Source: Planctomycetota bacterium (GTDB lineage Bacteria; Planctomycetota; GCA-002687715; DRQF01). Taken from it: a stretch of DNA of 21,604 bases. The stretch covers positions 1 through 21,604 of the forward strand of contig JAZGFI010000221.1 in assembly GCA_036479435.1 (NCBI GenBank), read 5' to 3'. Position numbers and translations under genes: made by a program. The notes beneath the pieces are model-generated. The model made no database searches. It had not been told where the DNA came from and saw only the letters and a program-made list of their open reading frames with translations. Shown here one piece after another: positions 1-21,604 of this stretch; the stretch's first letter is position 1; each line of letters opens with the position of its first letter.

Positions 1-11
1 GGATCGGGCAT
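1..11 (-). CDS. Probable 5' start (MPD...) of a third gene of the DUF6603-like operon, truncated by the window edge
   Basis: The minus strand reads GAAGGGGCT-TGA-ATC-ATG-CCC-GAT-CC. An ATG lies 3 nt after the stop of the 1147-aa ORF, with a purine-rich SD-like stretch upstream. Only 3 full codons are visible. Confidence 0.4.
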
Positions 12-14
12 GAT

Positions 15-3000
15 TCAAGCCCCTTCGTCAGAGTCGATGGAGTTGATGAGGTTGGCGCCCTTATAGGCGACTCGAATAGCGTTCTGCAGTAAGACACGGG
101 CGACAACGCTGCTGCTCGACGGCGGCCACGCCACACTGTCTGGCGGCGGGTCGGAACGCGTCTCAGAGATCTGAAATGAGTTTCCACCGGTCAAGATGAA
201 CTGGTCATTGCTGAGTTGAACATCGTCCCAGTCGAGGTCGTTGCGTGCTTCTATTGCGGCCGGCGCATCCTGGTCGGCAGCATCGAGCCCAAAACGTGGG
301 GCGGTCGGGTTCTCGGCGATGAAGAACCACCACTTGCCCGCCTCAACTTCTTCCTTCGTCAAGTTGAAGCCGACCAACATGATGTCGGGGCTTAGATGGG
401 CTTGGAACAACACGCGACCTAGATCACTGGCGATGCTTTCGTCCGAACTGGCACTGGGATTGGGTGCTTTGAAAATCGGAGTCTGGTCATCCGAATTGCC
501 CTGCTGGAGGGCCATCATGATGGCGTCGGGATAGCGTTTCACGAGTTCGCCGCGAACGACAAACACCACGAAGGGTTTGTTGCCGAGGGCGAGGTGATTG
601 CCAAGGCGCGTGGGACCGAAGCGGTGGATCGGACCGGCGAGATCGTCGCGGTCGTCTTCCCAGAATCTTTTGAAGTAAGTGCCCCGTTGATCCGTGGGGT
701 AGCCACGCCAAAGAAGTTCACGCCCCATCTCGTCGGAAAGCCCGAGGAAAAAGGCCTCAATGAAGGCGGGATTAGACTCGAGCAAAGTGACGAAATTACT
801 TTTGGCAATCTTACCCAGGCCCGGCACCAGCCAATCTCGATCGTAGGCATCGAGCGCTTCAAACATGGGTCGGTCGAATTTGGGCGCGGCCATAATGGGG
901 CGCACTTGCCGGTCGCTAAACCAATCCGGCGGGAGCCAAGCGGGGATGCGTTTCAAGAGCCCCTCGATCAGACTTGTAAACGTGACGGCGGGCTCCACCT
1001 GCGCCAGCAAAGTGCTTTTACTGATTGCGAGACCCTGTCGTTGTCGAGGTGCAGGTAGGGTCTTGATGCCGAGGTCCTGGACGGCTTCTGCGAGCTGCAG
1101 CGACAGGCTGCGAAGGCTGATCTGGGCGCTGCTTTTGAGAGCGTTGCTAAGAGCGCTCGAATCTTGGGAACCAAACCCCGCAAGTAGATCTCGCCTGCGG
1201 CCAAGGTTGGCGTCGAATGCTCGCCTGAACTGCGGGCGGTTTGAGAGGGGGCTTGAGGCCGCTAGACCGCCGGGCAACAAAGGGCCCAGGCGACGTCGGC
1301 GCGGATTGATGATGCGAACATCGTTGCCGCGAGGGCCCACGTTGAGATCTGGGAGCACATCGTTCACGCGATCCAAGATTGGCTTACTCAAGCGTTTCAG
1401 ACCGGGAATGCCGCTGGTTGCGAGTCCTGCCACCAGGCCGCCCAAGGATTCGGTCTGAATGAGATCAGGGTCGCGACCTTCGACCGCTTCAATGATCGGA
1501 CGGATGCGGCCCACAAGCTTCTCCGCTCCGATCTTTCCGGGGTTGATGTGACCGCGCGGGACCTGCCAGGTGTTCACGGGGGCGAGCAACTGGTCTGAAA
1601 GCGTCGCCTCGTTTCTAAGCGTCGCTTGGCGAGTCTCAAAGGTGGCACGCGCACGATTATGAGAGACTTTGAGAACTTCGCCGAGCACCTCATTCGAGAT
1701 GGTCGATAGAGTCTCTGGACTAATGCCACGCACGCCATCGGGTTCCGAGTAGGGCCGCCTGGAATCGATGAGGCCGGCTTCGTCGGCGACTTGGCCGAGA
1801 GGCGCCTGCAGGGCGAAGTCCTTCGCGAATTGTCCCAAGGCCCCGCGGGGTTGAGTCGCGCGACGAAAGCTCCACTTCAGCGCGGCCGGTGCCGTGAAGC
1901 TTTTATTGATCGCGGCGGCGAGCGTCAGATCGTCGCCTTGAATCTTCAGCTTCCCGTGGACGTTTTGAGTGATCTGAGCGAGGCCTGAGAAGGAAATCTT
2001 CGCTAGGTGCTTGCTGTGAATCGACGTGGATAGATAGCGGGCGAATTGCAGTAAATGCAAACGACGGTTAGCTCGGTCGATGCCACCCACTTGGGCCCAA
2101 GCGGACTGCATGAGCGCCTCTTGGTCTTTCTGCACGACGCGGGTGCCGAGTCCAGCAACGATGCGGTGTACCGGAGTCGTATTGAGTTGTTGGAACCAGT
2201 CAAAGTCGCTGATGCCGTCGACTCGGCTAGCCCCGCGGTGAAATCGTCCGTAGATACGCGGACCGATTCTGGGCAAGTCATCGGTGGCAAGATCCGAATT
2301 GAGAGTTTGCTCGTCGGGACGGTTGATACGTGCTCGGAGGGCATGGCGATCCGCCGCCTCCCATTCGGCGTTGTCGTCAGGGCTATTCGGCGGGGCGATG
2401 TTGGGCGAAAAGATGGCGCATTTTAGAACTTGGACGCGACCCGGAGCTTGGGGATCGAGGTTGGGCAAGTCCCCCTTGGGATGCGCGGCGTCGATGAACC
2501 GTCGACCTACTTCCCAGGGTGCGAGAATGGGCTTGAGTTTGCGCGAAAGCTCCTCGAAGGCGCCGCCCTTTGCGGTCCGAAAACGCCAATGGTCGTAGAC
2601 GGGAAGCGTGATCTCTTGCGCGTCATCGCCGAGAGTTCTGATCCATGCTTTATTCAGGGTGCCGCCAGGCAGGTTGAGGCCGGTTTTCACGCCGCAATCA
2701 TATGTGGGAACCAGGCAAGCGACGTAGTTCTTGCCATCCTCAAGGCGCCGTGGGCACAGCAAGCGTGCGAGGTTGACGGGGGCGTAACCTTCACCGAGGC
2801 GATCTTTGAGACTCGGAGTGGCGAGGTCGCTGCCGAGCCCGAAACTCCCATCGGGGCGGATGCTCACCGAAGGGTCGCTGCCCGTGTCGCCAATAACTTG
2901 GGCATGGGCAAAGGCCCAGGCGTTGCTGAGGGGTTGTAATTCACCCTTGATGGTCTTGACGCGCACAGGAAATCCCGAGGGCGCCGACGAAAACGCAGCG

Positions 3001-3458
3001 TGCTTACTTTCGAGAACGACCAGGGTCATCCAAGGGTCAAGGCGCTCTTGCTGTGCACCGGCCGCGGGGAAGGGTGTGTAAAGCCAGGGTAGCTCTGGAC
3101 GATCGAACTCAATATGGGCCAGAAAGCCCTCCTCGGCATCACTCGTGTCGGGGGCCGGGTAGCGCTTGATGACCTGGGATTTCTCAATGCCAAGCACATC
3201 GCTGGGGCCGCGGAGGGTCAGCGTCTTAGCCACGGGGACGCTGCGACCTTCGTCGTCTTCGATATCGACTTCGACGCTTACTTTAGCTCGCAGCTCGCCA
3301 CTGGCGGGTGCTTGCACGATGGCTGAGAATCCCTGGCGCACCCAAGGGAGGTAGGTGTAGACCCCGAGCTGGGTGTATTCTGGTTTGTAGATCGTCTTGG
3401 CGATGGAGGCAAAGGCATCGTTGACGAAGTTTGCGCTTTGCGAGAATGATCCGCTCAT
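15..3458 (-). CDS. Large hypothetical protein (1147 aa), partner of the DUF6603-like protein
   Basis: Long ORF whose ATG overlaps the upstream TGA (ATGA at 3455-3458). Motif-like blocks include YLPWVRQG, EFDRPELPWLYTP, LPVYDHWRFRT, ELLWRGYPTDQRGTYF, VRGELVKRYP and PRFGLD; I recall these from hypothetical proteins encoded next to DUF6603 genes. No signal peptide or obvious catalytic motif. Confidence 0.85.
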   Translation of the reverse strand: MSGSFSQSANFVNDAFASIAKTIYKPEYTQLGVYTYLPWVRQGFSAIVQAPASGELRAKVSVEVDIEDDEGRSVPVAKTLTLRGPSDVLGIEKSQVIKRYPAPDTSDAEEGFLAHIEFDRPELPWLYTPFPAAGAQQERLDPWMTLVVLESKHAAFSSAPSGFPVRVKTIKGELQPLSNAWAFAHAQVIGDTGSDPSVSIRPDGSFGLGSDLATPSLKDRLGEGYAPVNLARLLCPRRLEDGKNYVACLVPTYDCGVKTGLNLPGGTLNKAWIRTLGDDAQEITLPVYDHWRFRTAKGGAFEELSRKLKPILAPWEVGRRFIDAAHPKGDLPNLDPQAPGRVQVLKCAIFSPNIAPPNSPDDNAEWEAADRHALRARINRPDEQTLNSDLATDDLPRIGPRIYGRFHRGASRVDGISDFDWFQQLNTTPVHRIVAGLGTRVVQKDQEALMQSAWAQVGGIDRANRRLHLLQFARYLSTSIHSKHLAKISFSGLAQITQNVHGKLKIQGDDLTLAAAINKSFTAPAALKWSFRRATQPRGALGQFAKDFALQAPLGQVADEAGLIDSRRPYSEPDGVRGISPETLSTISNEVLGEVLKVSHNRARATFETRQATLRNEATLSDQLLAPVNTWQVPRGHINPGKIGAEKLVGRIRPIIEAVEGRDPDLIQTESLGGLVAGLATSGIPGLKRLSKPILDRVNDVLPDLNVGPRGNDVRIINPRRRRLGPLLPGGLAASSPLSNRPQFRRAFDANLGRRRDLLAGFGSQDSSALSNALKSSAQISLRSLSLQLAEAVQDLGIKTLPAPRQRQGLAISKSTLLAQVEPAVTFTSLIEGLLKRIPAWLPPDWFSDRQVRPIMAAPKFDRPMFEALDAYDRDWLVPGLGKIAKSNFVTLLESNPAFIEAFFLGLSDEMGRELLWRGYPTDQRGTYFKRFWEDDRDDLAGPIHRFGPTRLGNHLALGNKPFVVFVVRGELVKRYPDAIMMALQQGNSDDQTPIFKAPNPSASSDESIASDLGRVLFQAHLSPDIMLVGFNLTKEEVEAGKWWFFIAENPTAPRFGLDAADQDAPAAIEARNDLDWDDVQLSNDQFILTGGNSFQISETRSDPPPDSVAWPPSSSSVVARVLLQNAIRVAYKGANLINSIDSDEGA

Positions 3459-6403
3459 GCGAGGGCTCCGGGGGCGACAAGCTCGAGCTCGGCATCGATG
3501 TTCAAGGCGGTGTGAGCGTCGGCGAGTTCAATTGCGGTCGTGTAGTTGTAGGAATTGGCCTCGGCACTAACCGCGCCAAGGTCTTCGCGGAATCTCAAAA
3601 CGCGGTCTTTGGACGAGCTAAGTTCGATCTCATCAACGATCTGTTGGGCGTAGGCGTTGCCGCGATTGCGCGCCCCTATAGAAACGGCTCCGGCTCTTAC
3701 CGCAGCACCTTTCATGCGTGCGTTCATGAGCACGGCATGAGGGGGGCTCAGGAAGTGCCATTGCCGGTCGGGTCGAAGAACGGCAGTTTCCCACTCGTAG
3801 CTCACCGAACTCGAAGGACCACAACTTGGAGCTGATGTGGCGACGACTTTCATCCCCGCGGGCATGCTCTCGAATGAGGGCCGCGAAACCTGTTCGTCCT
3901 CGCTCAACTCCATGAATTGTCCCGGTGCGAACAGGTCTTCGGCGTGAGACACCAGATTGGCGTCGACGCCTTCGAGTCTGACCGCGGCGAGATTGACGCG
4001 CTTGGCGTCGGGGCGGCTTTGGCCGATACGTTCGATGTTGGTTTCGAGCGGGAGTTTCGCCTGCTTGACCTCAAGTGAGCCTAAGGGGTGGACGAGCAGT
4101 GGCGTTTGATCGTCTTCGATGAGCTTGACCAATGTCTCGGTGCCAGCGGGCAGAATCGGTTTCCAAACTTCGTCGTCCTCAAGCGCCTCGGCGACCACTC
4201 CGATCGCCGATATGGAGGGCAAGGTGCTGCTGTCAGAATCACCCCAAGTGAAGGGCCCGAGGTCGAACTCGATATCCCACCAGAGCACAGAGACGCTCGC
4301 GTAGCCTTCGATGGACCAAGGGTTCGTGCCCTTGAGGGTGCCTTTGAAGTCAACTCCGAAAAGATCGAAGCCGAAGGCCGAGATGGATAGGCCCGCCGTG
4401 ATGCGAACTTCGAAGTAAAAGCGCGGCGCCCATCGAAAAAGGGCATCCAAGGTAAGCCAGCCCTTGCCTTTTACGGGGCCGAGCTTGGCGTTGAGATGGA
4501 TGCCAGCCCCGAACTGCAGGGAGTTGGTAGTGATGGCAAAGTAACCTTCGGCGCGCAGCGACAGCCATTTGGCGGGCGAAAGGTCGACCGTGATCTTGCG
4601 AAGGCCCTGGAGGACGGCGGGAGCTTCATAGCCGGGGAAGAATCCTCCGACACTGATGGCAAAGTCCGCACCACCGGCCCAACGGATGTAGATTCCCATG
4701 TCGCCGCTAACGGAGATTCCCGCGAGCTTGGAATTACTGATGCCAATGAGCACCAGCATGTACTCAGGCGTGAATTCGCCGTAGACCTCAGCCTTCAGGT
4801 CGACGATCTTAAGGCCGTCCGGGACCTTCGTTGAAGGCACCCCGATTTCGATCGCGCCGAGGATGATTAGTTTTGGATCAGGCAACGAAAGGATGATGCC
4901 AACCTTAGCTTTGACAAAGCCAGCCTGAGATCCCCATCCCAACTCTCCAATGGGGCCCACCGCAAAGGCACCTTCTTGGGCGGGGAAGACCTTTTTGACC
5001 TTCTCAAGAATCGTGTTGGCAGCGTCGATGGGGTTTTTGGGAAAGAGCAAAGTCGCGGCCGTGCCGTCGCGAATGCCCTTGCGCAACTCATCCGTCGAGA
5101 CGCGACGTTCGACCGCCAAGATGCCGCCCAAGCCGTTGAGCGTGAAGCCCAATCCGAGATCAATCGCCGGTGAAAACTGGACCGACAAGATGACCACGAA
5201 GGAGAAGGGATCGGTGACCATCAATCCGATAGCGGTGATGCGGAAGTCGCCGATCTTCAAATCGAGAATGCCGCTGTACTCGTTGTCTTCGCGTCTGATG
5301 AATCCGCCGCCGCTGACGATGCCCGCATTGACCCGAACGCCAAGACCGTCCGGAAGCCGCGGTGAAAACTCGAGGTGGTCATTGCTGGCTTCATCCCAAC
5401 GCACGGTCACCCCGGCGCCTTCAACGACGATGCCCAGGGCGTCGCCGAGTTTCGCGGCTAAAGTCGCGGTGACTTCAAAGCGATCGTCGGCTTCCTCTTC
5501 ATCTTCGTTGGGGAGAGCGATGGCGAATTCCCGAAGCTCGATTCCCGGGAAGGAGAAACTGACGGGTAGAGTGAGTTTGCGGTTCTTGCCCGGCCCAAAG
5601 GTGAGGCCGTCATCGGAATCGAGCTGGATCATCGTCGATTCGGCCGTTGGATTGGCACCATTAGGAATGACTTTTTCGAGCAACTTATCTGAGCGCAGAC
5701 CGGCTTGCATTTTGGTGCGGAAGCGTAGGCCCACATTGGCTTTGTCTTTGTAGTTGAAGAACGCGAGGAGCGTCATCTGTTGGAGATTGAAGACGCCGAA
5801 ATCCCGGTGATCGATTTGGGCGATCTCAAAGCGAAGCTCTTTGTTGGCGCGATCGAAAGTAAGGGCATCTCCCAATTCTTGGGAGGCGTTGTTCATGCCG
5901 AATAGTTGCTCGACGATATCGTCAAAGGCGCCGCCAAGGCCCGCCGCCACGTCGCGGAAGGGCGCTTTCCAAGGCTCGGTAATGCCCTCGATTGCGTTTT
6001 TGATTGCCGGCTGAACGACGCCGGCGGCGTTTTTGGATAGCTCGGTTGCGACGATGGTCAAGGCTTCGTCCGAGGCGATCATTAGAAAGGCCAGCTCGGT
6101 CGCGGCACGGCCCGCTGCCTCGATGGTGAAGGGGTCCGTCTGCAACTCGGTCGCCATGTTTTGCGCTGCCACCTTGGCCGCGTTGATCTTGGGCGTGATG
6201 AGCGGGATGACGGGCTGAACCACACCGCTGAGGTTGTCGACGTCGTCTTTTAGTGAGTCCCATGCCGGGCCGCTCGGGGCATCTGTGAAAATGGAAGTGA
6301 TAAACGAACCCGAGTCACTGAAAGTCGTTCCCACGAAGTTGGAGGCTCGCGTTTCGCCAAACGCCAACACTCCTTGCACAAGACCAGTCCATACGTCCGT
6401 CAT
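3455..6403 (-). CDS. DUF6603-like beta-strand-rich large protein (~982 aa)
   Basis: Start revised from TTG 6478 to ATG 6403 (MTDVW...), which has a GGAGAGG SD upstream. The protein has an N-terminal helical region, then long runs of amphipathic beta strands (GGGFI, LGLGFTLNGLGG, SVGGFFPGY, YFAITTNSLQFG, FDLFGVDFKGTLKGTNPW) and a C-terminal VHPLGSLEVKQ...FAPGQFMELS...PSFESMPAG block, all matching my recollection of DUF6603 proteins. Confidence 0.8.
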   Translation of the reverse strand: MTDVWTGLVQGVLAFGETRASNFVGTTFSDSGSFITSIFTDAPSGPAWDSLKDDVDNLSGVVQPVIPLITPKINAAKVAAQNMATELQTDPFTIEAAGRAATELAFLMIASDEALTIVATELSKNAAGVVQPAIKNAIEGITEPWKAPFRDVAAGLGGAFDDIVEQLFGMNNASQELGDALTFDRANKELRFEIAQIDHRDFGVFNLQQMTLLAFFNYKDKANVGLRFRTKMQAGLRSDKLLEKVIPNGANPTAESTMIQLDSDDGLTFGPGKNRKLTLPVSFSFPGIELREFAIALPNEDEEEADDRFEVTATLAAKLGDALGIVVEGAGVTVRWDEASNDHLEFSPRLPDGLGVRVNAGIVSGGGFIRREDNEYSGILDLKIGDFRITAIGLMVTDPFSFVVILSVQFSPAIDLGLGFTLNGLGGILAVERRVSTDELRKGIRDGTAATLLFPKNPIDAANTILEKVKKVFPAQEGAFAVGPIGELGWGSQAGFVKAKVGIILSLPDPKLIILGAIEIGVPSTKVPDGLKIVDLKAEVYGEFTPEYMLVLIGISNSKLAGISVSGDMGIYIRWAGGADFAISVGGFFPGYEAPAVLQGLRKITVDLSPAKWLSLRAEGYFAITTNSLQFGAGIHLNAKLGPVKGKGWLTLDALFRWAPRFYFEVRITAGLSISAFGFDLFGVDFKGTLKGTNPWSIEGYASVSVLWWDIEFDLGPFTWGDSDSSTLPSISAIGVVAEALEDDEVWKPILPAGTETLVKLIEDDQTPLLVHPLGSLEVKQAKLPLETNIERIGQSRPDAKRVNLAAVRLEGVDANLVSHAEDLFAPGQFMELSEDEQVSRPSFESMPAGMKVVATSAPSCGPSSSVSYEWETAVLRPDRQWHFLSPPHAVLMNARMKGAAVRAGAVSIGARNRGNAYAQQIVDEIELSSSKDRVLRFREDLGAVSAEANSYNYTTAIELADAHTALNIDAELELVAPGALA

Positions 6404-6460
6404 GCCGATCGCCTCTCCGGTTGCGCGCCCTGTCTGAACAAGACGCATCCGTCCTAAGAG

Positions 6461-6479
6461 ATTGACCACAAGGGTCAAT
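6461..6479. promoter_or_regulatory. Perfect inverted repeat ATTGACC-N5-GGTCAAT, candidate operator upstream of the DUF6603-like operon
   Basis: 7-bp arms at 6461-6467 and 6473-6479, about 60 bp upstream of the ATG at 6403. Each arm contains a -35-like TTGACC. Confidence 0.4.
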
Positions 6480-6707
6480 TAGGCGGCGCGTCCTTTGAGA
6501 TTAGCGGTGGCGGCGCGAAATCCCGTCCTCAAAACTTGGACAGGATCTCGCAAAGAAGCTCGAAAAAGTGGCGGTAACCCGAATGAACTCGAGATGCGAT
6601 TTTGTTCAAACGGAGTCTGTGACTTCGAAGGTCAAGGCGATCGCTTGCCAGAAAGTGATAGTGCTAGAGCTTCGTTCGATTGTGGCGGCGGTGGCGTCCG
6701 CAAGATG

Positions 6708-8429
6708 TTAGAGACCTTGGATTTCGGTGGCGTCGGTTGCCGTGAAGAAGGGGTTTCCAGATTGAGCGCTGGGGGCCAGAACGAAGCCCTGGAACATGAT
6801 GCTGAATCCGGAAAGGAAGACGGGCATGACATAGAGCATGGTGATGCCGTCATTGGGAAGAAGGCTTGGAGGAAAAGGGGAGGCGCTTCCGTCGAAGAGA
6901 ACGATGACGGCAAAGGCCTCAAAGGGGGAGGGGTTCACCCAAGCTTCTGGGAAGCCGAGGGGTTGAGTGATGGAGGTTCCCGTCATCTTAGGTTGGGCCA
7001 CGAGCAGTGGGATGGTGTTTTCGTAATCGCGGCGCGAGCCGAAGAAGACCTCGAGCAGGTCGCCACCGTTGGCAGTTTTGACGTCCGGAAAACGCGTTGG
7101 GGAGCCGTTGACGCCGGTCGCAATGACCAAGTCGCTGCCGGAGCCAGGATAAGTCGACGCCGGAAAGGAGTAGATCAAGACACTGCCGCTGTCGATGAGT
7201 CCGTTGGGATCGGCGAAGGGCGAGCCCGCGATGATCTCGGGTATTCCGTCTCCAGTGATGTCGCCAATGGATGCGAAGCGGTCTTGAATGTTGGCGAAGG
7301 CTTCGGGCCCCTTGGCTTGGTGAAAAAGCGTGCCGTCCGAGCCTGAGAACACTGATAGAACGCCAAACGATCCAAAGTCTTTGGCCCCAACAATGAGCTC
7401 ATTGATGCCGTCGCCATTGAGGTCGCCAGCGGAACTAACCGTGGTGCCAAAGGAATCTCCCGGCTGCTCGCCGAGGAACTGGAATAGTATCGATCCATCC
7501 TGTCCGGAATAGACCGTGGCGCTGCCGGAACTCGCGGGACTGAGGCTATCGGTGGAAGTGCCCACGCAAAAATCGCTATGGCCGTCCCCGTTGATGTCGC
7601 CAAGGCCGGTCACGGACTTGCCGAAGGGTTGCCCGGAAGTGGCGCTGCTTAAAGTGTAGAGCACTGAGCCGTCGAAGCCAGAGAACACGCGGGCGTATCC
7701 GTCAGGCGTGGTCGCAATGGCTTGAGTTCCACAGATCACATCGTCGAAGCCGTCGTTGTTGACATCACCGGCACCGGCGACCCGGTAACCGAGGCTCTCA
7801 TTGCTGTTGCCCATGAAAGTGTGGATAAGCGTGCCGTCAAGACCAGAGTAGATGCTGACGGTTCCCGAACTGGAACCGTTCGCTTCGTCTTTGAAGGCTC
7901 CAATGACGATGTCTGGGCGTCCGTCGCCATTGACGTCGCCGGCCGATGCCACCGACCAACCGAAGAAGTCGGAGTTGTCGTCGCCGTTAAAGGTGTACAA
8001 GGCCGTGCCGTCGAAGCCGGAGTAAACATAGACGCGTCCGACTCCGAGGCCATTGGGGTAGCCGTGGGAGCCCACGATGACATCGTCAAATCCATCGTTA
8101 TTGACATCGCCCGCCGCTGCGACTGAAGTCCCCATGAAGGCCGCGGTACTCTCGCCCGAAAAGCTGTAAAGAACGCTGCCATTGGCACCGGAATAGACCC
8201 TCGCGCGGCCCGCACTTGCAAACGCTGAACTCTCGTTCTGGGCGCCGATGATGTAGTCGGCGATGCCGTCGTTGTTGACGTCACCTGCTGCCGACGCTGA
8301 GAACCCGAACCTCTCGCCCGCGGTCGAGCCGTCGATTCGAAGGAGTTCAGGTGTCCGTAGCTGAGCCATCACTGAAGCACTGGTGAAGATGATAGCGGCG
8401 ATAAGTAGGTATCCGTGGCGCATGAGCAT
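6708..8429 (-). CDS. Secreted FG-GAP / integrin-alpha-like seven-repeat beta-propeller protein with C-terminal domain (~573 aa)
   Basis: Start revised to ATG 8429 (or 8423), giving the signal peptide MLMRHGYLLIAAIIFTSASVMA-Q. Seven FGxSV(A)xxGD(V/I/L)NxDGxxD/E repeats carry DxNxDG Ca-binding loops. A ~145-aa non-repeat C-terminal domain follows. Confidence 0.9.
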   Translation of the reverse strand: MLMRHGYLLIAAIIFTSASVMAQLRTPELLRIDGSTAGERFGFSASAAGDVNNDGIADYIIGAQNESSAFASAGRARVYSGANGSVLYSFSGESTAAFMGTSVAAAGDVNNDGFDDVIVGSHGYPNGLGVGRVYVYSGFDGTALYTFNGDDNSDFFGWSVASAGDVNGDGRPDIVIGAFKDEANGSSSGTVSIYSGLDGTLIHTFMGNSNESLGYRVAGAGDVNNDGFDDVICGTQAIATTPDGYARVFSGFDGSVLYTLSSATSGQPFGKSVTGLGDINGDGHSDFCVGTSTDSLSPASSGSATVYSGQDGSILFQFLGEQPGDSFGTTVSSAGDLNGDGINELIVGAKDFGSFGVLSVFSGSDGTLFHQAKGPEAFANIQDRFASIGDITGDGIPEIIAGSPFADPNGLIDSGSVLIYSFPASTYPGSGSDLVIATGVNGSPTRFPDVKTANGGDLLEVFFGSRRDYENTIPLLVAQPKMTGTSITQPLGFPEAWVNPSPFEAFAVIVLFDGSASPFPPSLLPNDGITMLYVMPVFLSGFSIMFQGFVLAPSAQSGNPFFTATDATEIQGL

Positions 8430-8634
8430 GTTTGGGTCTCGGTTTTGATTTGGACGTGGTGCTAGGGTGGCGGGAGCTAAGGGTGGAAACGCGGTGCGGC
8501 AGCGAGGCCGGTGAAAGAAGAGCCAGGTTTTTTGGTTGGTAACAGCGAGGTACGATCGCAGCGTACACCATCGTCGGCGAAAGCTCAAACCATAAGGAGC
8601 CAGAAGCCGGGGCTAAGCCAATCTGGAGGAATTG

Positions 8635-12460: not shown

Positions 12461-14086
12461 CTAACGACCGAACAGAAGCTCGAGGCCGTTGGTCGTTGTA
12501 GGCGCGGGGGATAGCTCGGCGGCCTGAAGGTAAAAGCGAAAGCCGAACAAGGTGGGCTCTCGAAGGTTTTCGAAGGCGCGAAAAATGCCGGTGCTATCGG
12601 CCATGAGGTTGGCGGTGAACAACAGGTCGTTGGGAGTGGGGGAAACGTAGAGCGGGAATGGCGTGCCGCCGATGATCGAGTCGGTCGGTGCTAAACTCAC
12701 GGCCACGAGAATCGCAGCGCTTGGAGTGGCGCCGCTGACGACAATGTCGCCGTGCTCAGGAGTGTCGAGGCGTGGCTCCCAGCTGAGTGACAGGGCACCA
12801 GGTGCCGTTCCGTAGGTGTTGGCTCCCATGATGGAGGAGGCAGTAACCGTAACCGCCGCTCCCGCTGCCGCGTCAAAGTCGCACCACAAGAACTCGGCGA
12901 TTCCGTCGCCGTTGACATCAGAGATGATCGAAGAACGGATCGGAAGGTCGGCCAAGATCGTGCCGTCGCTGCCCGAAAAGACACGGCGCGCAAATTCGAT
13001 GTGGATGCCTTGTGAGGACGAAAAGACCTCGTATCGCGTTGTGAAATCTGCAACCCCATCGCCGTTGATGTCGCCGATGGGGTTGTAGCGATCTTGGGAA
13101 TAGATGCCGGTGCCGAGAGTGATACGCGAAAACAAGAGCTGTCCTTGAGCGGAGTGCATCCCCAGCCAGCCGATACCAGAAAGGGCGTTGTTGCGGTCGA
13201 CGCCGTGGACCAACAAGTCGTCGCGACCGTCGCCATCGACATCGCCCACGTTCGATAGTTGCTTTCCGTAGAGATCACCCGCGGTCGCTCCGCTGACCGT
13301 CGCGACGAAGGTTCCGTTGAAGCCGCGAAAAACGTGGACATGTCCGTGGCTTAGCGGCAGGTTGTCAACGCTGACAAGGATTTCGGGAAAGCCATCGTCG
13401 TCGCCGTCGTCACCCCAGTCGAGGCTCATGAAAGTTCCGCTGGGGCAAGAGACGGACTGAAGCACGGCACCCGTGGCGCCGCTTCTTACCTCAGCGTAGG
13501 CTCCGGCATTGATGCCAAGGCTTTGACCAATGAGCAGGTCAAGCACGCCATCTTGATCAAAGTCCTTGCCGCAGCGAATCTCAGCTCCGTAGCCCGCCAC
13601 TGGAGAGGCGAGCGGTTCCCAATGGTGGACGGTTGAACCGTCAAACCCGGAAAAGATGAAGACGTCGGAACGGAAACTCGTACCGCCAAGGCCGCTCGTT
13701 GGCTCAAGGTCGTTGGCAATGGCAAGGTCTGCAAAGCCATCGCCATCGACATCACCCACATCTATGGCTTGAACGTCGCCAAACTCAAGGTCGGTCACGT
13801 TGAAAGGGCCGTGCAGGTGGATGGATGCGCCCGTCATTCCCGACCGAACATCGACGTAGTTTTCGATCGCGACCACTGAGGTGGAGCCGGGAGCCGTGAA
13901 GATGGTTTTTCGCAGGACCATCGCGAAGTCGTGTCTCCCGTCGCCATCGACGTCGCCGAGGGCACAGGCATCAACCAGCACCTCATCCGCGGCCAAAGAA
14001 AACTGGTACTGGATGGGTAGGGACTGCCCCTGGGCAAGATCGAGCAGGATCACGACAAGCAGCAGGACGGAGCATCGCGCGAACAT
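12461..14086 (-). CDS. Secreted FG-GAP/VCBS repeat beta-propeller protein with C-terminal domain (~541 aa)
   Basis: Start revised to ATG 14086 (GGGAG SD upstream), with signal peptide MFARCSVLLLVVILLDLAQG-Q. About seven degenerate GDVDGDG-type repeats and SGxxG turns. The C-terminal domain ends FGFRFYLQ...TTNGLELLFGR. Confidence 0.85.
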   Translation of the reverse strand: MFARCSVLLLVVILLDLAQGQSLPIQYQFSLAADEVLVDACALGDVDGDGRHDFAMVLRKTIFTAPGSTSVVAIENYVDVRSGMTGASIHLHGPFNVTDLEFGDVQAIDVGDVDGDGFADLAIANDLEPTSGLGGTSFRSDVFIFSGFDGSTVHHWEPLASPVAGYGAEIRCGKDFDQDGVLDLLIGQSLGINAGAYAEVRSGATGAVLQSVSCPSGTFMSLDWGDDGDDDGFPEILVSVDNLPLSHGHVHVFRGFNGTFVATVSGATAGDLYGKQLSNVGDVDGDGRDDLLVHGVDRNNALSGIGWLGMHSAQGQLLFSRITLGTGIYSQDRYNPIGDINGDGVADFTTRYEVFSSSQGIHIEFARRVFSGSDGTILADLPIRSSIISDVNGDGIAEFLWCDFDAAAGAAVTVTASSIMGANTYGTAPGALSLSWEPRLDTPEHGDIVVSGATPSAAILVAVSLAPTDSIIGGTPFPLYVSPTPNDLLFTANLMADSTGIFRAFENLREPTLFGFRFYLQAAELSPAPTTTNGLELLFGR

Positions 14087-14231
14087 GGAAGGTCTCCCCA
14101 AAAGACCAAAGAAGGGTCATGATCTCGATAGAAACGGGAACCCAGTTGTTGCAAGCCCTTTGAGAAAAACAACGCTAACTCAAAGATACTCGGTATGTGC
14201 CCGCTTACGGGACCATCACCGACAGATCATG

Positions 14232-15155: not shown

Positions 15156-15291
15156 GGTATGACAATCTTACTCGAAATGGGAATGGCAGTTGCCCCAAGT
15201 AGAGGGCCTGTTCCAATGGCTTTGCTACGATGCCTTAGTTCGTTGCTCAGGAGGGTCAGCTTTGAATTCGTTATGGCGCGAGAGGTCGCAG

Positions 15292-16683
15292 ATGTGTTGT
15301 CGTCCGTGGAGCCTCTTAATCGTTTTGATTTTCGTTTCGCTTTCCTGCAGCGAACCGTCGGGGCAGGCTGGAGATGCCGCGCATTCTGAAGGCGACCAAG
15401 ATGAGCTGAGCGAACTTATCGTACTGCTTGGATCAGACTCGGAAACGATGGCTCAAATCGAAACCGTACTGAAACAGTCGGTGCGAGACTCTGAGGGCGT
15501 GACGGCGGTCAAGGCAAGGTCCGGCGTGCCGTCTCGCTGGTTGATTGTTGAACTAGATGATAGGAGGCTGCAACGTTCTGGCGTCCAGCCGAGCGAAATC
15601 CTGAGGATCGTTTTCGAAGCGGAAGAACGACTGGGTTCCCCAGAGTCGAGTCAAGGGAAAGACCGCGAGATACTAGGGAACCTTGCCCTTACGACCAAGG
15701 GAGACTCAACCCTGCTCTTGCGCGACGTCGCCCGGATAACGGTGGCAAAAGACCCGAATAACAAGGTGGCGTGGTGGCAAGGCAAGCCAGTTGTGGTCCT
15801 CGACGTTTTCCGAAGGACAAGGGCCAACGCCGAGACGCGGAGCCAACTCCAAAGCCGTATCGTTGACGCGTGCGACAAGCTCAAAGACGAGGTCTTGATC
15901 CTGGCGGCCGAAGAACTTGCGATCATCGACTTCGAGTTCGCCGCGGGCACGTCAATCTATAGGTTTAATGCCCTGGCCGGGGAGATTGAGGCCTTCTTTA
16001 CAGCCGAAGATTCCCCGCTGGTGGAAGTTGATGCTAAGAACGGTGTTATCCGCGTGGTCACCAAGTCAGAGGCCTTCGGCGCGATCAACCAGATCTTAGC
16101 TCGCTTGCCAGGAGCTTCTTTGAAGACAGTTCTGCTTGGGCGTTCGAGTCGAGGGCGTCGCGTCGGATTTGAGATTGAAGGAGAGGCGCCGGCGGCAATT
16201 CGAGAGGTCCGAAAAAGACTAGTTGATGAGATGTCTAGAGTCGACGGTGTCCTGACTTTTCCTACCGTCCAACCTGAAGATTTCTTGCAAACCGAGACGG
16301 TGATTGACGAAAAAAAGGCAGCGCAGTTCGGACTGACCCGATCCGCCATCATGCAGTCGATTCAGTTGAATACCGGCGGCATTCGCTCCCCTCAGAGCCG
16401 CGTGCTCGTCGGCTACTTCGGGACCGGCTTTGATCTCCAGTCTCTCAAAGGCATGCACATCTCGACTCCAGCAGGCACGGCCGTGCCCTTGGCCTTGGTT
16501 GCGACCATGCAGTCACGAAAGATGGCGGTGTCTGAACACCAGGTCGGAATCCTAAAAGCCCGCGTGGGAGTCCTTTTGAACGGAACTGGCTCTGTCGATC
16601 GGCGCCTGAAAGCGGTTCGAGCGGCGGTGGTGGCACTTCCCTTGCCAGAGGGCTTGCGAATCACCGAGGTATCATCGAACTGA
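15292..16683 (+). CDS. Exported (probably lipo-) protein consisting only of AcrB/CusA-like RND periplasmic subdomains, with no transmembrane domain (~463 aa)
   Basis: Start revised to ATG 15292 (GAGAGG SD), giving MCCRPWSLLIVLIFVSLSC, a hydrophobic stretch ending in Cys. RND ectodomain-like motifs: EGVTAV..LIVELDDRRLQRSGV, LLLRDVARI, GKPVVVLDVFRRTRANA, AGTS, FEIEGE, MSRVDGV, IDEKKAAQFGLT, ISTPAGTAVPLALVA, LPEGLRI. No hydrophobic helices after the leader. Confidence 0.75.
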   Translation: MCCRPWSLLIVLIFVSLSCSEPSGQAGDAAHSEGDQDELSELIVLLGSDSETMAQIETVLKQSVRDSEGVTAVKARSGVPSRWLIVELDDRRLQRSGVQPSEILRIVFEAEERLGSPESSQGKDREILGNLALTTKGDSTLLLRDVARITVAKDPNNKVAWWQGKPVVVLDVFRRTRANAETRSQLQSRIVDACDKLKDEVLILAAEELAIIDFEFAAGTSIYRFNALAGEIEAFFTAEDSPLVEVDAKNGVIRVVTKSEAFGAINQILARLPGASLKTVLLGRSSRGRRVGFEIEGEAPAAIREVRKRLVDEMSRVDGVLTFPTVQPEDFLQTETVIDEKKAAQFGLTRSAIMQSIQLNTGGIRSPQSRVLVGYFGTGFDLQSLKGMHISTPAGTAVPLALVATMQSRKMAVSEHQVGILKARVGVLLNGTGSVDRRLKAVRAAVVALPLPEGLRITEVSSN

Positions 16684-19330: not shown

Positions 19331-20845
19331 TTAGTGCCCCTTGCCTCCGACGACTTGGAACACGCCGTTTTCGTCGGGCTCGAGCTCGTAGTGGAACCAG
19401 CGCTTAGTATCGCTGCCCTTTTCGTTGCGGAATGCAATTACGGCCTTGTTTCCGTCGGTGCGGAGATTGATTGCGCCGTAGACGCCTACGTTGCGCCGGA
19501 ACAGCTCGTTGAGGATGGAATGGCGTTGATCTTCGAGGGCCTTCTTTTTGATTGTGTCAGTTGCCTTGTCAATCTTCTTGACGAGATTGTCGAGTTTCTT
19601 GCGCAGTTTTGGGTCCTCGCGCTCGCGAGTTGAACGCAAGAGTTCGGTGCACAACACTAGAGGGCGATGTCCACGGCCCTTGCGGCCGAGAAGGCCGAGT
19701 AGGTCTGGTCGTGGATGAACATGGCTTTCTTCGTCACCTGAGGAAACGATGAACCCGGCCGGAGCGGTGGCTTGTAGGAACTCGTCGGTGACATCGGATG
19801 AACCGTGATGGCAGCTTTTCATCAGATCGACACCGAAGCGGTTGGATGCTTTCGCGATCATCTCTTCGGTTTCCTCCATCGTGGTGGGCGCTTTACCATC
19901 GTTGCCGTAGTGGCGAATCAGGAAGTGTTCCGCCGGTAGGTTGAGGTCTCCGCCGAATAGCACCGAGAATTCGCGGTATTGCAGCCGCAGCAGTATTGAG
20001 TGTCCATTTTTGGTCTTACCGCGATCCATCGCTTTTGCAGTGAGGGTCTTGGCGAAGGTGCGCAATCCTCGCTTGCCGTTGGGCGCCTTTTCGGCGACTG
20101 GTCCCAGCACTTCGATCGTGAATTCCTTGTTGTCCGAGGGCCCGAATCCGTGCATCCACGTGCGACCGTCCTCCTTCTGACCGTGGTGACTGGACAACAT
20201 GCGGACGTCACCGAAGCGAGAGCTCGTGAGCGCCTCCCAAATAAGTTTCGGATAGCGTTTGCGGCCGCGTGTCGTTTTGTCCTTGTAGAGCCTCTTTGCG
20301 GACGACTTCGTCGGATGGATGTCGGTCAGGTAACCCTTCTGAATGGGCCCCAGTAGGTCCTTGCCGGTCCGCTCGAGGAGGCCGTTGTGGTAGACGTATT
20401 CGAAAGAGATCTTTTGGTTCGTGAAGATGTCCTGGAAGCCCTCGTAGTGATCGGCGTCGGGGTGTGTGACGACCGCGGCGTGGAACCTAAATTTCTTCTT
20501 GAAATCGCGAAACCGCCAATTCAGGAATCGGTTCATATTGTCACTGATTCCCGCGTCGATGATCATGATTTTTTCTTTCGAGCCGGTGGCCGGTGTTGTG
20601 AGGATACAACCATCGCCCTGGCCGACGTCGAGGAAGATCATCTCGCAGAGCCGCTCACTCTGGTAATCGTCTTTTTTGATCGCGAACTTGTTGCGACCCC
20701 ATCGCACTTCGGACCACTTTTGGTCGATGTCGTCGCCAACGCGCAGCCAGTCGCCCCAAAGAAGCTGCTTCTGTTTCTTTTTCCGGGTTGCACAATCGTA
20801 GAGATAGACAACGGGACCCTTCGCGTAAAAGACGTTGCTAGCCAT
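19331..20845 (-). CDS. ComEC/Rec2-like metallo-beta-lactamase-fold hydrolase with small N-terminal SH3-like module (504 aa)
   Basis: Motifs FLDVGQGDG, IIDAG, THPDADHYEG, N..SILLRL..FSVLFGGDL, KSCHHGS and HVHPR. GGAG SD before ATG 20845. No signal peptide and no ComEC membrane domain. Lys/Arg-rich. Confidence 0.85.
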   Translation of the reverse strand: MASNVFYAKGPVVYLYDCATRKKKQKQLLWGDWLRVGDDIDQKWSEVRWGRNKFAIKKDDYQSERLCEMIFLDVGQGDGCILTTPATGSKEKIMIIDAGISDNMNRFLNWRFRDFKKKFRFHAAVVTHPDADHYEGFQDIFTNQKISFEYVYHNGLLERTGKDLLGPIQKGYLTDIHPTKSSAKRLYKDKTTRGRKRYPKLIWEALTSSRFGDVRMLSSHHGQKEDGRTWMHGFGPSDNKEFTIEVLGPVAEKAPNGKRGLRTFAKTLTAKAMDRGKTKNGHSILLRLQYREFSVLFGGDLNLPAEHFLIRHYGNDGKAPTTMEETEEMIAKASNRFGVDLMKSCHHGSSDVTDEFLQATAPAGFIVSSGDEESHVHPRPDLLGLLGRKGRGHRPLVLCTELLRSTREREDPKLRKKLDNLVKKIDKATDTIKKKALEDQRHSILNELFRRNVGVYGAINLRTDGNKAVIAFRNEKGSDTKRWFHYELEPDENGVFQVVGGKGH

Positions 20846-21280: not shown

Positions 21281-21604
21281 CAAACTTTGATCAACTGTTC
21301 ATGTTAGTGGGCCCAGATCCATGAGGCATCCATCGCCGAAAGTTGAGCGCGCGTCGGCTCGGGGGCAAAGGCACCCCAGGCTCCGTCGAGAGGGCGGCCC
21401 ACGACCTCGGTCTTTAACACCGAGTTGTTTCGGCCCCGCGCCGCCCATTTCTTGTCGCTGCGAAAAAGGGTCTTGCCGCCAGCGATTCCGCATCGAGAAA
21501 AAGTGACTGAGGCGAACCTCCCGTAACCCTCATTTCGAGGCCGTTTTCAACGACTTTTGTTTCGTCGTAGACAAAAAGCAAATTCGCATCCACTTTGATC
21601 TAGA

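Follow-up and report, generated by a model that had tools for sequence, protein, structure and literature searches.

A four-gene cassette built around a gene of the DUF6603 family is real, conserved and undescribed in the literature searched, and it lies outside every system tested. It was identified in a contig of 21,604 nucleotides (nt) from a Planctomycetota bacterium (GenBank assembly GCA_036479435.1). This contig, referred to here as the window, is the whole of C221 (JAZGFI010000221.1). Its left end carries two giant genes, A and B, and shares 127 exact bases with contig C12, an end of which in turn overlaps contig C275 by 127 bases; the same ends occur in no other contig of the genome. 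Joining the three contigs yields an operon of about 12.8 kb, comprising A (the DUF6603 gene, 982 amino acids, aa), B (1147 aa), C (1545 aa) and D (579 aa), with junctions of -4 nt (A-B), +3 nt (B-C) and -1 nt (C-D). A public contig of 24,637 bases covers all of C12 and both flanks with zero differences; it is possibly the source of the DNA analysed here and is thus not independent. In addition, B and D are each recorded on a contig of 812,161 bases.

The initial annotation, made from the letters of the window alone, had described two giant open reading frames (ORFs) joined by an ATGA overlap, followed by a probable third start 3 nt past the stop of B. The overlap is confirmed, and the third start is real, opening the 1545-codon gene C on the overlapping contigs. 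The sequence left of the window, whose retrieval had been recommended, is supplied by C12 and C275 and holds the rest of gene C together with gene D, so that the proposed three-gene operon was right about its third gene and missed a fourth. Among the strain variants in gene C, 32 of 40 lie at third codon positions (40 listed out of 46). The G+C content at third codon positions is 0.64-0.70 in the four operon genes versus 0.66-0.73 in four other genes of the window; given this similarity, the operon is not visibly foreign.

Conservation and mobility of the cassette

Relatives of B numbered 533 (8,000 candidates scored) and those of D 778, with the D profile matching 4,870 clusters at 50% identity. 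Scanning metagenomes with B gave at least 575 confirmed stretches out of 659, and 66 loci were kept. Gene order and junctions were counted in metagenome loci plus two genome loci, all fetched with B and including several near-duplicates. A precedes B in all 49 loci with more than 1 kb upstream, C follows B in 50 of 51, and D comes next in each of the 31 loci with more than 6.5 kb downstream. Junctions fall within -8 to +15 nt for A-B in 47 of 51 loci, for B-C in 46 of 51 and for C-D in 34 of 36; at the A-B junction, the spacing is -4 nt in 30 of 51 loci and -1 nt in 11 of 51.

The co-occurrence check proposed by the initial annotation was carried out on 301 genomes of the phylum, where DUF6603 and D-profile searches, run independently, matched the same four genomes, and the other three matched genomes carry A-B-C-D in order. 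No DUF6603 or D match was obtained in five genomes of the same family, nor any DUF6603 match in 14 control genomes. Beyond the phylum, D matches were found on 14 plasmids from Actinomycetota, Pseudomonadota, Gemmatimonadota and haloarchaea. Ten of these were opened, and nine carry A-B-C-D in order, including plasmids of Rhizobium lusitanum and Halobellus in which B and C are split; the tenth, from Streptomyces anthocyanicus, has only D, beside IS5 elements. The split genes and the D-only plasmid suggest that the cassette decays. Integrases or transposases often adjoin it, its spread is patchy, and its host range covers monoderms, diderms and haloarchaea. Plasmid, genome and metagenome loci thus bear out the earlier statement that DUF6603 genes recur with the same partners in distant taxa.

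A viral origin was considered and rejected. IMG/VR yielded no relative with the patterns used, and the sole 'phage' record, deposited as 'Bacteriophage sp.' (MT835531.1, locus L010), in which LexA, ComEC-like, AlkZ and STAND regulator genes accompany the cassette, resembles a piece of bacterial chromosome and is probably bacterial DNA. A fixed fifth gene was likewise rejected, given that no neighbour family recurs in more than four loci, mostly duplicates; the 108 neighbour proteins compared with Pfam are mainly housekeeping, transport and mobile genes. Genome G215 has a DUF6603 locus of a second class (contig C5; L104:10616-20000 and L105:3-1529). Here, the DUF6603 gene encodes 1322 aa, a 972-aa gene product distantly matches the N-terminal domain of B (hhalign E 0.0019, probability 14%), a third long gene has a C-like beginning without yielding a profile match, and D was not found.

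Subunit anatomy, add-on domains and coupled hydrolases

The DUF6603-like identity first proposed for A is well established, as PF20248 matches it at E 4.6e-99 and 332.7 bits (gathering cut-off 27) over model positions 7-501 of 502. Its ATG start agrees with the ESM Atlas start and with homologue N-termini, giving 982 aa, whereas the mechanically called ORF begins at a TTG at position 6478 (1007 aa). Amphipathic helices (residues ~1-190) are followed by a Gly-rich amphipathic beta-meander of ~530 residues (~190-720), interrupted near 435-475 by a helical insert, and by a soluble C-terminal part. Over most of residues 200-700, the beta-moment is 1.0-1.6 and the mean hydropathy positive. The ESM Atlas model of A is of low confidence (pTM 0.48); its closest rows outside DUF6603 reach a TM of at most 0.30 by query, and one of the rows closest to this low-confidence model has a 33% Porin_4 share. 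The literature library searched holds no functional record for DUF6603. Neither DUF6603 nor PF20248, with spelling variants, is named in any paper in the main texts covered, although supplements may list such genes and subscription journals lie mostly outside; a five-term concept search of the same literature found no paper either.

A is a member of the DUF6603 proteins, whereas B, C and D belong to no Pfam, NCBIfam or PHROGs family and have no significant PADLOC match. Profile searches of the PDB with all four proteins returned no relative, with rows of coiled-coil type only. Paralogy among B, C and D was rejected, as hhalign probabilities were just 0.1-0.2%. The model of B is confident (pLDDT 84.5). 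The N- and C-terminal parts form a beta-sandwich base with two weakly Ig-like sandwiches (Z at most 4.9), and between these parts lie a helix of 55 residues (429-485) and a variable excursion that is likewise helical (~490-800). C has an N-terminal coiled coil and three conserved blocks. D (pLDDT 82) is beta-rich with a helical insert. Its segments 23-66 and 302-326, among the most conserved of the protein, are modelled at low confidence in the monomer, which suggests that they may fold on a partner. Covariation in D (Neff 216) is noisy, with a hint of contact between 60-70 and 302-323, and a three-copy complex prediction of residues 43-375 scored 0.00 with an uncertain fold, which is evidence neither way.

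Fold searches used whole-chain models of B and D, which can miss single domains. For B, the best match (Z 7.6) fell on a three-helix piece (637-705), Foldseek returned none, and a second search gave Z 4.9 to Ig-type sandwiches. For D, the best Z was 5.4, with all matches within the helical insert (116-225), and Foldseek found none in the PDB at E 0.001; against viral structures, the best E was 1e-3 with a TM of 0.06, and a second fold search gave Z 2.5. Taken with the PADLOC, NCBIfam, PHROGs and PDB profile results for A-D, none of which gave a characterised match, these searches uphold the earlier proposal of an undescribed system.

In a simple hydropathy check, made with no trained predictor, no 19-residue window exceeds 1.82 in A or 1.41 in B, C and D, and the N-termini are not signal-like. 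All four proteins are therefore apparently without a signal peptide or membrane helix, in agreement with the initial annotation, which had reported no signal peptides. Conserved His and Cys residues are few and scattered in A-D and absent from D, which makes a structural role more likely than an enzymatic one, with an enzyme still compatible. No NTPase or nuclease domain was recognised in the core proteins.

Many relatives are more elaborate than the source copy. B and C are naturally fused in one protein of 2261 aa. Extra domains were recognised in 13 of the 23 long D homologues that were scanned, at either end or internally: PG_binding_1 (2), IPT/TIG (5), collagen (2, of which one also has TIG), as well as PA14 with F5/8, P-domain, WD40, LTD (lamin-tail, in a haloarchaeal D) and DUF2934. 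Both collagen runs begin directly after the D core and, considering that collagen requires three chains, imply three D chains side by side. An FG-GAP insert is present in a Streptomyces B, and a haloarchaeal C is annotated with a 'BGTF surface domain'.

Many loci also have a hydrolase gene adjoining the cassette, the kind varying between loci. Examples are a PhoD gene in Salinigranum, with a 33%-identical PG-binding relative in Streptomyces, a phospholipase D (PLD) gene in genome G032, a protease-like gene pair that includes a cysteine cluster in G200, an S8-motif gene before A in G215 (motifs read by eye) and an S8 gene after D in Nocardia. The rule that a long A always comes with an upstream enzyme was rejected, as it is true in six loci and fails in L082, where the upstream gene lies on the opposite strand.

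A putative delivery particle and its alternatives

The reading we favour, at a probability of roughly 0.45, is that the cassette encodes a leaderless four-subunit particle that brings an exchangeable hydrolase to the surfaces of other cells and is Tc-like in its logic. Coupled expression from a single operon would keep A to D in constant proportion, and the four would join in the cytoplasm to form one large structural particle, whose exit, in the absence of an export signal, would require lysis or some other non-classical pathway. The scaffold would consist of B, C and D, with surface loops and ends able to display cell-wall- and glycan-binding domains; D would probably stand in threes at the base of a spike, and the long amphipathic beta-sheet of A may engage a membrane or enclose or hold cargo. 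In many relatives, the coupled hydrolase (PhoD, PLD, or an S8 or trypsin-like protease) would be the payload, and the family may thus act as a target-binding delivery device, presumably antagonistic, against the envelopes of other cells. The source genome would carry a bare chassis, acting via A alone or taking cargo encoded elsewhere.

A stoichiometric A-B-C-D complex, as the initial annotation had suggested, is a reasonable inference because of the fixed order, the tight coupling and the natural B-C fusion; physical binding is what we infer. More tentatively still, the four genes may together be the entire chassis of a protein nanomachine whose class is undescribed and independent of both Tc toxins and phage-tail machines, and which would bind envelopes via a trimeric, fibre-bearing D and deliver or present hydrolases via A, with the source locus as its minimal form.

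Several observations weigh against such a delivery particle. The cassette loci have no conserved neighbour among holin, lysis or secretion genes, and the PDB profile searches revealed no sequence match between any subunit and a known toxin or injection component. A collagen tail is present in only two of the D homologues collected, and just one sequence shows the B-C fusion. The source copy has neither a coupled enzyme nor a recognised binding domain, its clade has a short A, and 15 of 25 distinct loci lack a same-strand gene beside the A start, so that a payload is not obligatory; in the ten loci that have one, three have a long A and five of the neighbours are apparently spurious frames. The proteases, PLD and PhoD are also compatible with a role in scavenging or in conflict inside the cell.

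Among known systems, Tc (ABC) toxins are described as a TcA translocator and a TcB-TcC cocoon holding a variable enzyme (PMC6795518, 10.1101/590430, PMC10847048). What they share with the cassette is a logic: multiple giant subunits without leaders, binding parts that vary, an exchangeable enzyme and a release that is probably independent of a classical export signal. They differ in that A-D contain no TcA, SpvB or RHS family, the enzyme of the DUF6603 cassette is a separate gene, conserved lysis genes are lacking, and the binding modules suggest microbial walls and glycans as targets. Profiles of A-D retrieved no TcA chain from the PDB at E 10 and no TcA Pfam family. The membership in Tc-like toxins that had been suggested is therefore not supported by sequence. 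The matches of the whole-chain models of B and D, which can miss single domains, include no Tc chain. In one metagenome contig, an SpvB-family gene of 402 aa (L070:1926-3134, +) ends 145 bp before the DUF6603 gene, and is just a neighbour in that locus.

Extracellular contractile injection systems and tailocins are patchily distributed particles of bacteria and archaea that lack leaders and exchange their fibres and effectors, and the product of the cassette would resemble them in these respects. In contrast to them, the cassette has only four core genes, and neither these nor the conserved neighbours include one for a tube, sheath, spike, baseplate or ATPase; comparison of A-D with PHROGs gave nothing below E 0.08, and Pfam revealed no contractile-injection family among the 108 neighbours.

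The amphipathic sheet of A is the reason for keeping a lipid-handling or nutrient-scavenging machine as a candidate, albeit a rather unlikely one. In such a machine, the sheet would form a lipid groove like those of AsmA, TamB and VPS13 or apoB, and phosphodiesterases and proteases would digest biomass held by the binding domains. The N-terminal amphipathic helices and long hydrophobic beta-meander of A may resemble the beta-groove lipid bridges of the AsmA/TamB/VPS13 type, and PLD and PhoD act on phosphoesters. However, none of 32 A homologues matches the AsmA, TamB, Chorein or vitellogenin families at E 0.1, A-D have no membrane anchor, A has three obligate giant partners, no transporter is found among conserved neighbours, and the cassette is present alike in monoderms, diderms and haloarchaea. 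The varying effector-type hydrolases could also belong to an intracellular conflict or anti-phage system, a four-protein sensor or scaffold that would activate a coupled protease, phospholipase or phosphatase upon infection, and the leaderless, patchy, plasmid- and integrase-linked and sometimes decayed state of the cassette agrees with this. We consider it unlikely, given that the domains fused in relatives are of extracellular types, the core has no recognised NTPase or nuclease domain, and the sole PADLOC hit is a non-significant one to LmuB (E 0.025) on the coiled coil of C, with none for A-D in NCBIfam. The neighbourhood, with the composition given above, is not defence-rich, and the anti-phage role raised in the initial annotation thus received no positive support.

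Improbable, too, and the most so of these alternatives, is a non-offensive protein shell, lattice or surface layer, serving as an enzyme compartment or an adhesion structure. Large structural subunits with few conserved His and Cys residues, tolerance of inserted domains, the weakly Ig-like sandwiches of B and a probably three-fold D are all compatible with it. A surface layer would need the signal peptides that A-D lack, a one-protein lattice would hardly call for four distinct giant subunits supplied in coupled and about equal amounts, and no capsid or shell family was matched in PHROGs.

The source locus

The coordinates of the operon and its signals are collected in Table 1. No match to a sigma-70 promoter or a terminator was found within positions 6300-6800 of the window.

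Table 1. Features of the DUF6603 operon (positions refer to the window unless a contig is named)
Feature	Position	Strand	Basis or remark
Shine-Dalgarno-like GGAGAGG	6412..6418	-	8 nt before the gene A ATG; sequence
Gene A, 982 aa	3455..6403	-	ORF, ATG start at 6403
DUF6603 (PF20248) match, gene A residues 287-836	3896..5545	-	profile match
ATGA overlap, A stop/B start	3455..3458	-	sequence
Gene B, 1147 aa	15..3458	-	ORF
Gene C start	1..11	-	ATG at 9-11, 3 nt past the B stop
Gene C continuation	contig C12 (L001 117-3696); contig C275 (L002 13692-12508)	+; -	contig overlaps
Gene D, 579 aa, outside the window	L002 12508-10769	-	TGATG overlap with C, one base

Two FG-GAP repeat proteins are encoded in the window (6708-8588 and 12461-14101, both on the minus strand). 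The first lies upstream of gene A on that strand, with 305 bp separating the two, and is not a conserved neighbour. Further to the right lie a 497-aa, fragment-like match to the AcrB/AcrD/AcrF family (15190-16683, +; model of 1021 positions) and a metallo-beta-lactamase-fold protein (19331-20845, -), which resembles Avs1a, ComEC and 6A-MBL models weakly, at scores below the cut-off. The right end of the window (21478-21604) shares 127 bases with contig C224. It is a repeat element, the final 31-61 bases of which are also present at the termini of seven to eight further contigs.

On the other side, 6 kb downstream of D (L002:1701-4976, -), a 1091-aa protein combines a Gly-rich collagen-like stretch with an IPT/TIG (CoaZ) repeat and a C-terminal HExxH read by eye, and has no obvious signal peptide. 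No full-length relative was found among 300 genomes of the phylum with the query used. The protein was rejected as a member of the cassette, as its weak matches (at least five) all lie in genomes without the cassette.

With 4,870 clusters at 50% identity in the D family alone, the cassette ranks among the larger unexplained multi-gene systems of prokaryotes. The source locus is a stripped-down four-gene form of 12.8 kb, without inserts or payload, and such a bare copy is the simplest object for showing what the conserved core does alone. If the chassis reading is true, the family would represent folds outside solved structures that are common to bacteria and haloarchaea, and a means of delivery independent of both Tc toxins and phage-tail machines.

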